This document shows positions 53,158 to 56,553 of a stretch of 64,000 nucleotides of DNA, piece after piece (the stretch's first letter is position 1; each line of letters starts with the position of its first letter). The position numbers and the translations under genes were made by a program. The stretch is from Promethearchaeati archaeon SRVP18_Atabeyarchaeia-1 (GTDB lineage: Archaea > Asgardarchaeota > Atabeyarchaeia > Atabeyarchaeales > Atabeyarchaeaceae), in assembly GCA_037308085.1 (NCBI GenBank), contig CP147779.1:1-64000 (forward strand), in the 5' to 3' direction. The notes under the pieces were generated by a model. That model had not been told where the DNA came from. It was given only the letters and a program-made list of their open reading frames with translations, and did not search any database.

Positions 53158-53991
53158 TCAATGCCCAGCTCTCTGTTTCCATTCACTGATCTTGTATCTC
53201 AGATCTTGCAGATTTCCGAATCCTCTTTTCCATTGCTGAACTTCCTTTCCAATTTCGAAGACCAGTGTCCCTCCGCCCTTGGCCCTCTGCTCTACAAGTT
53301 CTTTGAGGGCTTGGATGGCCTGGGAAACGAGTTCGGGAGTCCTGACTAGGCTGATGTAGTGCTCAACTTCGTCGAATATCTTGTCGGTGGGCAGGGCTCG
53401 CCAAGCCTCTATGTCAGGCATTTTGAGGGCGCCTGGAATTGCCAAGAGCGAGCCGCGAATCTGTACCGCCCCTTCCCGCAACAGGATTTCAATTGCCTTG
53501 TTTATCGTGATCAGGTCGAGCCCTGCAAGTCTTGCCAACTCGTTTACGTCCATGCTTCCTCTCTCTGTGAGGATGAGCAGAGCCCTATGTTTTATTGAGC
53601 CGTTTCTTAGAATGAATTCTCTAGCTTTGTCACCGACGCCAGGCTCCGCGGCTAACAGCCTGAACAACAAGCTCTCAACTTCATCGTAGCTTCTTGAGAG
53701 AGATTCAACTTCCTGCTCAAGAAACTTCAGTCTGGTCGTGGTTGCTTCCCCAAAGCTCGGGTTCAGCTCAATATCTTTTATGCGCCTGAGAGACAACTCC
53801 AGTTCGGCTTTTCCTTTCTTGCAGTCCGCCAAGGCTTCTCCGAGAGAAGACATCTCAGCAAGGATTCTGTTCCTCTCTTGCAGAAGTGAATTGTAGTTGT
53901 ACTCGAGCTGCCGCAACTCCGAAGCTGGATCTGGTTTTGACCGATCATCATCTGGCGAAGGCAAAGAATTCCCCCTAAGAAAATGTGTCAC
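53158..53991 (-). CDS. coiled-coil plus winged-helix hypothetical protein
   Basis: N-terminal heptads; MDVNELARLAGLDLITINKAIEILLREGAV. Confidence 0.7.
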   Translation of the reverse strand: MTHFLRGNSLPSPDDDRSKPDPASELRQLEYNYNSLLQERNRILAEMSSLGEALADCKKGKAELELSLRRIKDIELNPSFGEATTTRLKFLEQEVESLSRSYDEVESLLFRLLAAEPGVGDKAREFILRNGSIKHRALLILTERGSMDVNELARLAGLDLITINKAIEILLREGAVQIRGSLLAIPGALKMPDIEAWRALPTDKIFDEVEHYISLVRTPELVSQAIQALKELVEQRAKGGGTLVFEIGKEVQQWKRGFGNLQDLRYKISEWKQRAGH

Positions 53992-54025
53992 CGCGATAAG
54001 TAGTGCTAAAATCTTTAAAGTGTTT

Positions 54026-54047
54026 GGTGCTGTTACCTCTTCGGTTG
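54026..54047 (+). repeat. left terminal inverted repeat GGTGCTGTTACCTCTTCGGTTG
   Basis: reverse complement of 55295-55316 with one mismatch. Confidence 0.92.
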
Positions 54048-54082
54048 GTGAGCTTAAATAGGGCTACGGGTCACCTAGTTTC

Positions 54083-55309
54083 ATGCAGGCATTTAAGGCG
54101 GTGCAGATACCATATGAGCCCACAGGCGATGTTCTCAGCCTCCTCGAAGCCTTCAAAACCATGGTCAACCACTGTATCCACGCCGGTATAGAGAAGAACG
54201 TGACGTCAAGACTCGGACTACAACATGAGGTATACCACCAGCTAGGCGGCTTCGGCCTCCACACTTGGTATAGCCTCTCAGCCATCGAGACTGCCACCGC
54301 CATTTTGAAGAACTACCGGAAAGCGAAGAGAAAGCGGCAGGACATTAGGGTGCCGAGAGCCACGAAGCTTATGGCTAAACTGGGAAACCAAGCCTACAAG
54401 GTTGTCGACGGCAAGCTGAGAATTCCGATCAAGCCCAGAGAGTACTACTATGTCCCCCTGCATAGGAGGGCGGCGCAGTTCCTATCGGACGCCGCACTCA
54501 AGTTAGGCTCAATAACCTTGGCACCTTGCACGGTTTCAGTGGCTTTCTCCAAGACCGCTGAGATTACCGAACCAGGGAGATACGTGGCGTATGACACGAA
54601 CGAACGCTCAATAGATGGAGCCTACATGAGAGGGTGCGGAGAACTGGCCGTTAAAAGCCACGACTTGTCAAGGGTTTCAGAGGCTAGGCACGGCTACTTT
54701 GAGCGGGTGCGGCGAGTCCAAGCTAAGTACGCCAAGGACAGGCGAGTAGCATGGAAAATCGAGAGGAAGTGGTTCGCCAACCAGAACAAAAAGGTTAGCA
54801 CGGTTCTACACCAAACGAGTTCAGCCATAGTCAAGCAAGCGAAGAACAATAAGCAGGGAATCATCCTCGAAGACCTTAAACATATCCGTAGTGCAGTTAA
54901 TCTGAAGGTTTTAGCCGTCAACAACTTCAATGGAAGAACCCAGTTGGTGGGCAGGCACTCCAAGAAATTGAGGCGGAGGCTCAACTCGTGGGGCTTCAGA
55001 AAGCTGCAGGGCTTCATCGAGTATAAGGCTCTCTGGGAAGGAGTCAAAGCCCTCAAAGTAAACCCTCGGAACACTTCTAGGGTGTGCGCGGTGTGTGGGT
55101 GCGTCATGCAAGACCCGAAAGCGAAGGCCCTGGGCTGTTGTGGGGTAGACCGCCACGTGAATGCTGGCCTGAATATGCTTAGAATCCAGGATGAAGGCCT
55201 GTGGTTCAGGCTGGATCGCTCCGCACGTGTAGCCGTGATTAGCCCCCTAAGAAGGGCTATGAGCCAGAGCGGAGAAGCTATCCCAAACGGTAATCAACCG
55301 AAGAGGTAA
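54083..55309 (+). CDS. tnpB: TnpB-family RNA-guided nuclease
   Basis: LRIP, YVAYDTN (RuvC-I), ILEDL (RuvC-II), FIEYKA, VNPRNTSRVCAVCG, DRHVNAGLN (RuvC-III variant). Confidence 0.92.
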   Translation: MQAFKAVQIPYEPTGDVLSLLEAFKTMVNHCIHAGIEKNVTSRLGLQHEVYHQLGGFGLHTWYSLSAIETATAILKNYRKAKRKRQDIRVPRATKLMAKLGNQAYKVVDGKLRIPIKPREYYYVPLHRRAAQFLSDAALKLGSITLAPCTVSVAFSKTAEITEPGRYVAYDTNERSIDGAYMRGCGELAVKSHDLSRVSEARHGYFERVRRVQAKYAKDRRVAWKIERKWFANQNKKVSTVLHQTSSAIVKQAKNNKQGIILEDLKHIRSAVNLKVLAVNNFNGRTQLVGRHSKKLRRRLNSWGFRKLQGFIEYKALWEGVKALKVNPRNTSRVCAVCGCVMQDPKAKALGCCGVDRHVNAGLNMLRIQDEGLWFRLDRSARVAVISPLRRAMSQSGEAIPNGNQPKR

Positions 55310-55336
55310 CAGAACCAAGTGTTTTGATCACTATCT
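55190..55336 (+). ncRNA. putative omegaRNA overlapping the tnpB 3' end, with guide extending past the right TIR
   Basis: hairpins GCCTG/CAGGC, CTCCGC/GCGGAG, TAGCCC/GGGCTA in the post-RuvC tail; boundaries inferred. Confidence 0.5.
55295..55316 (-). repeat. right terminal inverted repeat (reads GGTTCTGTTACCTCTTCGGTTG on the minus strand)
   Basis: matches the left TIR; contains the tnpB stop codon. Confidence 0.92.
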
Positions 55337-55404: not shown

Positions 55405-56553
55405 ATGGGCTTGCATGCTGGACGACTATCACTCAGTGACTTGGCTACCTATTTTTGGTCCGTTCAGGCGGCCGAATACATCAGAGAAAAGGAAGTCGAC
55501 GTCAGGGCGCTTGATGGGTATGAGGATGTTATCTCCGAGTCGGAGTCGTGGATCAACGCAACGCTGGAAAAGGGGCTTCTATCTCCAAATCCCAGTGGAA
55601 AACCCGAGACTACCATGCTTGCATACCCAACTGCCAGGATGTTTATCTCCATTCTCGGAAACGAGTATGTTCTGAGGAGATTCGCGAACGCCGTCTCTAA
55701 GTATGCTGGAGCCATGCTGGACAAGGAAGATGATGAGAAGGTCCTCTTGCTAGCAACCACTCCCGGCAACATTGCAGAAAGACCTTGGCAACTGGTGTTT
55801 CAGAAAGCAACACCCACAAGGAAAGACCATATCGCCGGCATGATTTATGAATGGAAGTTGTTCTTCACCGATTACGTTAGCGTCGCACAGAACTTCCACG
55901 ACGATAAATGGAAGTTGGTCAATAGACGCATGAAAGCGGGCTGGGTTTATCTCCTAAAATCTGACATAGCCCGACTAATGGAAGAATCTCTGAAGGCGAG
56001 AATAAGCAAAGGAGGTCTTAAGTCCGCCAGAGAGCTCCCGTCCCCAGAAGACTTGCCACCCAATCTGAAGATGGTTTTTGAGAGAATATCTGGCAAGGTC
56101 AAGAAATGGTCAAGCGAATTCCAAACCTATGATCTCCAGGCATCGGGCGCTGGCGAAATAGCCTACCCAGGCTGCATAAAACAGATCCTCGACAAACTTG
56201 GCAAAGGGATGGGCGTGAGCCACAACGAGAGGCTGGCCCTTGTCTTCTTCCTTTCAAACATAGGCAAAGACGTCGACGAAATCCTGCAGGTCTTCTCCAA
56301 GACTCCCGACTTCGATGCTCAGCGATCCAGATACTACGTTGAGCACGCAATGGGCTTTAGGGGTGGAGGTACAAAGTACAAGCCCTATGGCTGCCCAAAG
56401 CTAAAAACATATGGGATATGCAACCCCCAAGATGACTGGTGTAGAAACGGAAGGATAGGCTCCCGCATCCTCAGAGGACCTATCGGCTACTATAAGACCA
56501 AGAGCTGGCAGCTATCTGGAAAGAACGAGGAAGAAAAAGCAGAAAAAAGCTGA
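55405..56553 (+). CDS. priL: DNA primase large subunit
   Basis: WKLVNR, YPGCI, HNERL, PDFD...YYVEH, YKPYGC..L...GIC Fe-S domain. Confidence 0.9.
   Translation: MGLHAGRLSLSDLATYFWSVQAAEYIREKEVDVRALDGYEDVISESESWINATLEKGLLSPNPSGKPETTMLAYPTARMFISILGNEYVLRRFANAVSKYAGAMLDKEDDEKVLLLATTPGNIAERPWQLVFQKATPTRKDHIAGMIYEWKLFFTDYVSVAQNFHDDKWKLVNRRMKAGWVYLLKSDIARLMEESLKARISKGGLKSARELPSPEDLPPNLKMVFERISGKVKKWSSEFQTYDLQASGAGEIAYPGCIKQILDKLGKGMGVSHNERLALVFFLSNIGKDVDEILQVFSKTPDFDAQRSRYYVEHAMGFRGGGTKYKPYGCPKLKTYGICNPQDDWCRNGRIGSRILRGPIGYYKTKSWQLSGKNEEEKAEKS

Follow-up and report, generated by a model that had tools for sequence, protein, structure and literature searches.

A tnpB gene carried by a non-autonomous member of an archaeal IS6-like transposon group, with a candidate guide-RNA scaffold and a promoter-side landing motif

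Introduction

Previous work has already placed TnpB nucleases in elements moved by DDE transposases. The text of Altae-Tran et al. 2023 (PMC10691335) describes six branches of DDE-associated TnpBs (DDE-1 to DDE-6, linked there to IS630) with inverted terminal repeats, and it also describes solo TnpBs that share their ends with transposase-bearing elements, which implies mobilization in trans. A review (PMC13565253) names ISL2, IS630, and IS1031 as DDE partners of TnpB. Here, we analyzed a tnpB element in a stretch of 64,000 nucleotides from Promethearchaeati archaeon SRVP18_Atabeyarchaeia-1 (contig CP147779.1, positions 1 to 64,000, forward strand; hereafter the window). We found that this 1,291-bp element is a non-autonomous member of an archaeal group of IS6-like transposons. 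An earlier note, made from the letters of the window, had contrasted a prokaryotic tnpB between terminal inverted repeats of DDE type with the canonical IS200/IS605 and IS607 hosts, a contrast that was overstated since such elements are reported in the text of PMC10691335. The literature that we searched shows no link between TnpB and the IS6 family, and neither the main text of PMC10691335 (its supplement aside) nor that of PMC13565253 mentions one.

How does the window element compare with these published systems? Like the DDE-associated TnpBs in the text of PMC10691335, it has TnpB within inverted repeats and a tnpB 3' end at most 250 bp from the transposon end. In contrast to them, its partner is IS6/IS240-like. 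Some members of the published branches hold tnpB and a DDE gene within one repeat pair, whereas here the two genes were never seen in one element. Judged against the same text, the present case further differs in a duplication that would form the first 8 nt of the guide, in promoter-proximal landing, and in mini-elements that carry only a guide-RNA module. The points we regard as new are therefore the IS6-like partner, the geometry that places the duplication in the guide, the promoter-side motif with its orientation bias, and the guide-RNA-only derivatives.

Other known systems share some of this anatomy. IS1341-group and ISDra2-type elements likewise have a solo tnpB, the 3' end of which overlaps an omegaRNA-like scaffold, an expected guide in the flank, and a 5' landing motif that may serve as target-adjacent motif (TAM). 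However, they lack inverted ends and duplications, transpose as single strands through a Y1 enzyme, and excise without a scar, whereas the window element has DDE-type ends and an 8-bp duplication. The IS6/IS26 family (IS26, IS257, IS6100, and archaeal members) has in common with the present group the GGTTCTGTT start, the 8-bp duplication, and the DDE_Tnp_IS240 domain; the transposase-bearing relatives described here differ in being cargo transposons of 2.1-8 kb, in an N-terminal zinc-binding extension of the transposase, and in one-sided landing at promoters. Gene-less omegaRNA elements of IS200/IS605, such as PATEs, resemble the mini-elements of about 257-268 bp found here in having ends and a scaffold without tnpB, but the mini-elements have IS6-type inverted ends and 8-bp duplications. 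Finally, Fanzor1 and Fanzor2 are TnpB-type nucleases in DDE transposons with inverted ends and a duplication next to the guide or TAM region. The window protein is from an archaeal host and has 408 amino acids (aa), whereas Fanzors are eukaryotic or giant-virus homologs with Fanzor extensions. In a sequence and fold comparison against the PDB, its template-modeling (TM) scores were 0.30 for the Fanzor1 SpuFz and 0.61 for the mimivirus Fanzor2, versus 0.65-0.68 for Cas12f. In these comparisons, the Fanzor parallel drawn in the earlier note was not backed by any special similarity to Fanzor1, and the element has only a loose bearing on Fanzor origins because no special affinity was found.

Results

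Borders and insertion site

The element fills window positions 54026-55316, and tnpB is its sole gene. It is one of 11 closely related copies in the genome, which we call family 1. Its parts are as follows.

54018-54025: left 8-bp target-site duplication, AAGTGTTT; the octamer is single-copy in the empty sites of relatives
54026-54047, + strand: left terminal inverted repeat of IS6 type, starting GGTGCTGTTACC; sister copies end exactly here
54054-54060, + strand: TATA-like box TTAAATA (TTTAAATA in sister copies), in the same place in 11/11 family-1 copies
54083-55309, + strand: tnpB open reading frame (ORF), 408 aa, the only long ORF; TAA stop at 55307-55309 within the right repeat
55295-55316, - strand: right terminal inverted repeat, which holds the tnpB stop codon; sister copies end exactly here
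55317-55324: right 8-bp target-site duplication, AAGTGTTT, an exact copy of the left octamer

The terminal repeats match at 21 of 22 positions, and alignment of metagenome contigs showed that other family copies part from the window sequence exactly at 54026 and 55316. The coordinates proposed earlier for the repeats, the duplication, and tnpB all proved correct, and there is indeed no transposase gene inside the window element. The internal TTAAATA box, previously placed about 25 nt before the ATG, lies 22 nt before it and is a candidate promoter. Both the window element and its sister copies have the GG..CTGTT inverted ends and 8-bp duplication of the IS6 family; unlike the compact single-gene insertion sequences of that family (~0.8-1.5 kb, with a transposase of their own), the window element has no transposase. 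It is also set apart from IS200/IS605 and IS607 by its inverted ends and duplication, with no Y1 or serine partner.

Two relatives preserve the site without the element. The host genes on either side are:

53158-53991, - strand: divergent host gene with weak winged-helix matches; its start is 26 nt from the left duplication
55405-56553, + strand: DNA primase large subunit gene, orthologous in both relatives, which located the empty site

In G001 (same genus) and G002 (same family), the orthologous intergenic region is uninterrupted and holds the octamer once, reading ..CCTTTAAAGTGTTA.. and ..CCTTTAAAGTATTG.., respectively, in the alignment. These regions are ~1.3 kb shorter than that of the window, and the flanking winged-helix gene and primase large subunit gene are kept. 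Because the octamer is single and the element is absent in these relatives, the 8-bp repeat is a target-site duplication. The window element is therefore a real single insertion with the duplication of an 8-bp staggered cut, and the empty allele that the earlier note had proposed to look for exists in two genomes. In four metagenome runs from two studies, contigs extend across both filled junctions, but none of them bridges an empty site; one skipping joint, from 54047 to 55291, links one inverted repeat to the other and is uninformative.

The insertion point is just upstream of the TATA region of the divergent gene. A palindromic TTTAAA box (window 54013-54020), 22-29 nt upstream of that gene's start codon, is cut by the edge of the insertion. 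The insertion replaced everything upstream of the TATA region, which is still joined to its gene.

IS6-like transposases and related copies

The same genome encodes two DDE_Tnp_IS240 proteins that are 78% identical over their core and match PF13610 at 64-68 bits (63.7 and 65.4 bits against a cut-off of 27). NCBIfam NF033587 (IS6) matches them from end to end at 120.7 and 116.1 bits; because these scores are just under the cut-off of 125, we call the transposases IS6-like. The larger of the two has an added N-terminal zinc domain of SWIM/IS1 type. Each gene lies inside a longer transposon.

614149-618567 (L033:1001-5419): 4,419-bp element with the 251-aa transposase (L033:2355-3110); duplication 7/8
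549276-555829 (L034:3277-9830): 6,554-bp element with the 383-aa transposase (L034:3897-5048); perfect TGGAGAAC duplication

The ends of the 4,419-bp element are identical over their first 24 nt to several family-1 right ends, and the 6,554-bp element has ends like those of a second family of tnpB copies (family 2). Moreover, transposase-bearing and tnpB elements have in common a second, subterminal copy of the end motif at each end. A same-genome IS6 (DDE_Tnp_IS240) transposase with shared ends, which had been set out as a check in the earlier note, is thus present in two copies.

We searched the 2.81-Mb single-contig genome with the 18-nt core of the terminal repeat, allowing up to 3 mismatches, and found 42 matches, compared with 5 for a reversed control. 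The genome contains 15 tnpB copies: 11 in family 1, including the window copy, and 4 in family 2, whose TnpB is ~40% identical to the window protein. Nine of the 11 family-1 copies are 1.29 kb long and two (1,228 and 733 bp) are internally deleted; DNA identity between copies is 77-88%. Five family-1 ORFs are intact and six have stops, frameshifts, or deletions. In all tnpB copies the ORF spans from just inside one end into the opposite end. Most are flanked by 8/8 or 7/8 duplications whose octamers differ between copies, so the further copies with inverted repeats and duplications that the earlier note anticipated were found.

Family-1 copies stand at synonymous divergence (dS) of 0.5-0.9 and yet keep 7/8 to 8/8 duplications, and therefore they diverged before landing. 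This pattern points to elements that arrived repeatedly from a diverse pool outside, rather than multiplying within this genome. An apparent bias of the mismatch toward the central position in 7/8 duplications (6/9 in this genome) vanished once metagenomic sites were added.

Approximately eight gene-less mini-elements of 257-381 bp share their ends with the tnpB elements.

L123-L129: seven mini-elements of 257-268 bp, for example 868840-869096
763237: eighth mini-element, 381 bp

They consist of IS6-type ends, a TTTATAT box, and a covarying RNA module of ~200 nt, the last 135 nt of which match the 3' end of family-2 tnpB. We regard the mini-elements as candidates for mobile guide-RNA cassettes, which would depend on TnpB supplied in trans.

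There are three Y1 transposase genes in the genome (478195-478557, 1573364-1573714, and 1955413-1955769), all far from every family-1 and family-2 copy. Those at 1,573 kb and 1,955 kb adjoin tnpB homologs with only distant kinship to the window protein. Neither a Y1 nor a serine transposase lies beside any copy of either family, and the Y1 or serine TnpA at different true borders that the earlier note had guarded against was not seen. Classical and IS6-type tnpB carriers thus coexist in one genome.

Occurrence in other archaea

The nearest named proteins to the window TnpB are from Ca. Atabeyarchaeum deiterrae, Ca. Njordarchaeum, and Bathyarchaeota, the first two of which support the Asgard host that had been thought probable. 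GGTTCTG-type inverted ends bound 38 of 72 metagenomic tnpB relatives; among those 38, the duplication is perfect in 14, 7/8 in seven, and 6/8 in one. The 383-aa transposase has relatives in Bathyarchaeia, Nitrososphaerota, Methanoperedens, Methanoregula, and Asgard genomes. Of the 79 that we collected (L143-L221), fifty lie between GGTTCTG ends with perfect 8-bp duplications, in elements of 2.1-8 kb. The lone tnpB match among the 79 transposase loci is a fragment in L143, where no element could be delimited. On one Bathyarchaeia contig, a tnpB element (duplication TGGTTCAG) and an IS6-like transposon are ~10 kb apart.

The archaeal IS6-like transposons carry varied cargo and are often nested next to one another; their hosts are Bathyarchaeia, Nitrososphaerota, and methanogens. 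About two thirds of them lie beside a one-sided ATAAA-NN-TTN motif, which suggests a DDE transposon group with promoter-proximal targeting. The family thereby reveals widespread archaeal IS6-like cargo transposons that land just upstream of promoters.

The TnpB protein

Domain and fold agree on the identity of the protein. It matches the Pfam family Cas12f1-like_TNB (PF07282) at 3e-12 and TIGR01766 at 60.6 bits (cut-off 32), scores 78 bits with NCBIfam guided_TnpB, which is below the cut-off of 100, and retrieves TnpB at 9e-17 in a profile search of the PDB. The AlphaFold model has a predicted local distance difference test (pLDDT) score of 82.6, with residues 374-408 predicted to be disordered, and in Foldseek its TM scores are 0.65-0.68 with Cas12f and ~0.5 with ISDra2 TnpB. 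It has the RuvC fold and the zinc ribbon (TNB) of TnpB, the ribbon being of C4 type. D171 of RuvC-I and E263 of RuvC-II are invariant among relatives. However, the position of the RuvC-III Asp is His358 in nearly all relatives, so that the canonical D-E-D triad is not present; an invariant Asp378 lies in the low-confidence tail of the model. The earlier identification as TnpB thus stands by domain and fold, but the catalytic site is non-canonical. The ratio of non-synonymous to synonymous substitution (dN/dS) among intact copies is 0.14-0.20.

TnpB branches with an Asp-to-His change, which belong to a published class with a rearranged RuvC-III, are known, and the catalytic site of the window protein matches that class. 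According to the text of PMC10691335, they are partly linked to ribbon-helix-helix (RHH) or MazE-like genes, are largely archaeal, and may keep activity. The window family resembles the RIIIr-4/MazE branches of that text in the His at the RuvC-III Asp, in its archaeal spread, and in an RHH-like micro-ORF in longer relatives. The likeness is one of residue, host range, and micro-ORF only; IS6-type ends and duplications are not described for those branches in the text of PMC10691335. The family also offers a small, 408-aa His-variant TnpB that can be assayed for activity.

Longer metagenomic relatives (1.4-1.5 kb) contain a micro-ORF of 44-48 aa, RHH/VapB-like, between the left end and tnpB (L065:2137-2283 and L076:2879-3013). 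This micro-ORF possibly links the family to the published Asp-to-His TnpB branch that is associated with MazE/RHH genes.

Candidate guide-RNA scaffold

The 3' end of tnpB overlaps a structured module, which we read as a candidate omegaRNA scaffold.

55190-55316, + strand: candidate omegaRNA scaffold with a covarying fold; its 3' tail includes the right repeat
55196-55212, + strand: scaffold hairpin with the conserved loop UGYGGUUC
55219-55224/55269-55274: long-range helix of the scaffold
55232-33/55263-64 and 55240-45/55255-59: inner helices
55190-92/55215-17: closing helix
55317-55336, + strand: predicted guide segment (duplication plus downstream flank), placed by the geometry of the element, if the RNA reads out as in other TnpBs

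A consensus fold was derived from the last 220 nt of 19 family-1-type elements. It has 25 pairs, ten of which show compensatory double changes, and 97.7% of cells are paired. The observed values were not reached in any of 500 shuffles, and pairing in slid controls was 21-45%. A homologous module with the same hairpin loop is found in family-2 3' ends and in the mini-elements; nine of its pairs are compensatory, and G-U pairs are frequent on its sense strand. The last 62 codons of tnpB have a lower dS in 9 of 10 comparisons, and the scaffold region coincides with the predicted disordered tail of the protein. At the level of structure, the module lies where an omegaRNA scaffold would be expected, overlapping the tnpB 3' end and next to the transposon end. 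A search of the element against Rfam gave only a chance sub-threshold match, and no RNA hairpin was found near the ends of the transposase-bearing transposons.

Landing motif and orientation

The left duplication is preceded by a motif that belongs to the target.

54009-54017, + strand: landing motif AAATCTTTA, containing a candidate TAM (TTTA); target-derived, directly 5' of the left duplication, and overlapping the TTTAAA box

We counted bases at 34 independent tnpB insertions validated by their duplications, reading each in the tnpB sense. Position -3 is T in 32/34 and position -2 is T in 31/34; position -4 is a pyrimidine in 28/34; and A occupies positions -8 and -7 in 24/34 and 23/34, respectively, giving an overall motif of AA-NN-YTTN. 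At position -1, the usual base is A in family 1 but G in family 2 and in the mini-elements. Hardly any sequence information resides in the duplication or in the right flank. In 26 sites, TT at -3/-2 was confined to the tnpB 5' side, and in no site was it confined to the opposite side; the mini-elements obey the same one-sided rule. G001 and G002, whose sites are empty, already have the motif. At 19/24 tnpB insertion sites, the start of a divergent host ORF is no more than 200 nt away (mostly 20-120 nt), and the landing motif looks like the upstream edge of a promoter.

IS6-like transposons without tnpB show a similar preference for sites: 33/49 lie beside the same motif, compared with a background of 7.7%. 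Their motif lies on either side relative to the transposase gene (17:13), in contrast to the 26:0 of tnpB elements (binomial p = 3e-8; Fisher p = 7e-5 for 26:0 versus 17:13). When the few sets of tnpB-less transposons that could be oriented by the identity of their ends were examined, one trio shared an orientation, the pair L198/L215 was opposite, and one pair was ambiguous. The landing preference thus belongs to the transposon group, and strict orientation is found only in elements with the RNA module.

Strict orientation is what a TAM requirement would produce. The guide and TAM proposed in the earlier note are consistent with the scaffold, and the YTTN motif is found exactly where the TAM had been placed. 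However, a one-sided motif is not by itself proof of a TAM, and on this point the note went too far.

Discussion

Our analysis places the window element in an archaeal group whose tnpB-bearing members share a common anatomy: GGTTCTG-type ends of 22-25 bp, a TATA-like box of their own, a tnpB gene extending into the right end, and a structured RNA in the last ~130 nt. The same-genome transposases, the shared ends, and the duplications support the earlier reading of the element as non-autonomous and mobilized by a DDE enzyme. The IS6-like transposases very probably move the tnpB elements and the gene-less mini-elements in trans. For the explanation that we favor overall, in which an element mobilized in trans by IS6-like enzymes also homes through its TnpB, we estimate a probability of roughly 0.65. 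The specific homing step, with an omegaRNA that reads through the right end, a guide composed of duplication and flank, YTTN as TAM, and conversion of empty alleles, may or may not hold with about even chances.

How would such homing work? The omegaRNA would be transcribed past the right end, giving a guide made of the octamer and the downstream flank. An empty allele reads 5'-YTTN-[octamer]-[flank], and would thus offer both TAM and full target. In the occupied allele, the left junction would match the guide over 8 nt only, and the right junction would be preceded by the element end rather than by YTTN. Both junctions would then be protected, leaving the filled locus immune. Empty alleles would be cut or bound by TnpB, and the element would be restored or spread through recombination with the occupied copy. 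As in IS605, a single motif would serve both for landing and as TAM; here, the partner would be a DDE enzyme and the guide would incorporate the duplication. To our knowledge, homing by TnpB is understood only in IS605 and IS607, which excise without leaving a scar. More tentatively, and with somewhat less confidence than an even chance would carry, we propose that the IS6-like DDE group and the His-variant TnpB are coupled in the way of IS605 TnpA and TnpB, such that the transposon lands at a fixed offset from a promoter-side AA-NN-YTTN motif that also acts as TAM, the duplication and flank form the guide, mini-elements borrow TnpB, and empty alleles are converted.

Several observations weigh against this explanation. 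None of the 80 metagenomic tnpB loci has an IS6-type gene within 3 kb, and none of the 58 transposase-bearing elements contains tnpB. Since tnpB and a transposase were never found in one element, the link between them depends on shared ends and duplications. Family-1 copies, at 77-88% identity, show nothing in this genome that would suggest recent movement. Classical members of IS6 form cointegrates through replicative transposition, so that repair after excision may not apply. Nuclease activity of a TnpB with His358 would have to come from a site that differs from the canonical one, and the expression of the scaffold, the ends of the RNA, and the read-through guide are predictions from sequence. 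Moreover, the motif also flanks elements that have neither tnpB nor the RNA hairpin, and must at least partly reflect a preference of the machinery or of promoter DNA. Orientation bias could also stem from selection against tnpB transcription into the neighboring host gene.

We consider one alternative rather unlikely: mobilization by IS6-like transposases holds, while TnpB and its RNA do not home and instead form an RNA-guided DNA binder that does not cut, similar to a regulator, or serve some other role. Motif and orientation would then follow from promoter-proximal landing together with selection against read-through. The replacement of the RuvC-III Asp by His fits such a role, as does the landing motif of transposons without tnpB; the divergent host ORF next to the motif at 19/24 sites means that transcriptional compatibility could set orientation, and nuclease-dead TnpB repressors are known (PMC10705468). 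However, the residues of RuvC-I and RuvC-II do not vary, purifying selection acts on the protein of this multicopy mobile element, and the text of PMC10691335 argues that a conserved Asp-to-His branch is probably active. Furthermore, tnpB-less relatives insert both ways (L198/L215 among them), whereas RNA-bearing elements stand at 26:0, and position -1 differs between two TnpB families of one host.

The window copy could instead be a decaying relic of a family that is extinct in this genome, and look organized only because it is young at its site. The divergence of 12-23% between copies, the damage to 6/11 family-1 copies, and the lack of an insertion-free allele among contigs of the four metagenome runs all agree with decay. 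We find this improbable given an intact window ORF, the dN/dS values of 0.14-0.20, RNA helices that keep pairing through compensatory changes, and a perfect duplication despite dS of 0.5-0.9, which implies that copies diverged as functional elements before landing. It is less probable still, to the point of being hard to credit, that the likeness of the ends is incidental and that a different enzyme, or TnpB itself, moved the tnpB elements. Such a view gains from the separation of tnpB and DDE genes, and from one Bathyarchaeia genome in which the tnpB element and the nearest IS6-like transposon have no more than the first 9-10 nt of their ends in common. Against it, the first 24 nt of the ends are identical between the 4.4-kb element and family-1 copies, and both classes have the second subterminal motif copy, make 8-bp duplications, and land beside the same motif; in addition, we know of no case in which TnpB transposes DNA. 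Finally, although the genome holds three Y1 genes and many other tnpB homologs, we consider an ordinary IS200/IS605 or IS607 element with its true borders elsewhere to be ruled out. The borders are fixed by the empty sites in two relatives and by copies that break at 54026/55316; inverted ends and a duplication, absent from those families, are present; and the Y1 genes at 478 kb, 1,573 kb, and 1,955 kb are far from the family copies.

What would a DDE transposon that leaves a duplication gain from an RNA-guided nuclease? This question was raised in a 2026 review (PMC13565253), and the family of the window element offers a compact and testable prokaryotic case: its ends are defined, candidate transposases are encoded alongside it in one genome, its scaffold covaries, a TAM and a guide can be predicted, and both empty sites and gene-less guide-RNA derivatives exist in nature. 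If the more tentative coupling of the DDE group and the His-variant TnpB proposed above is true, Asgard and other archaea would harbor an RNA-guided drive linked to a DDE transposon that moves replicatively.

Cargo of the transposase-bearing transposons

Both cargo transposons of this genome carry passenger genes, with an Eco57I-like methylase/restriction protein among the products. The 6.5-kb transposon has a 995-aa Eco57I/MmeI-like methylase-restriction protein that lies, together with ORFs of no known function, beside the 383-aa transposase; this arrangement looks like a mobile defense cassette. Among the genes of the 4.4-kb transposon are a DUF4325 (STAS-like) gene and, paired with it, a 272-aa ORF without a Pfam match, a pair of retropepsin-like and DUF5678 genes, and an HxlR-type regulator. 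It is located just upstream of the gene for the V-type ATPase A subunit, the product of which seems to contain an intein.

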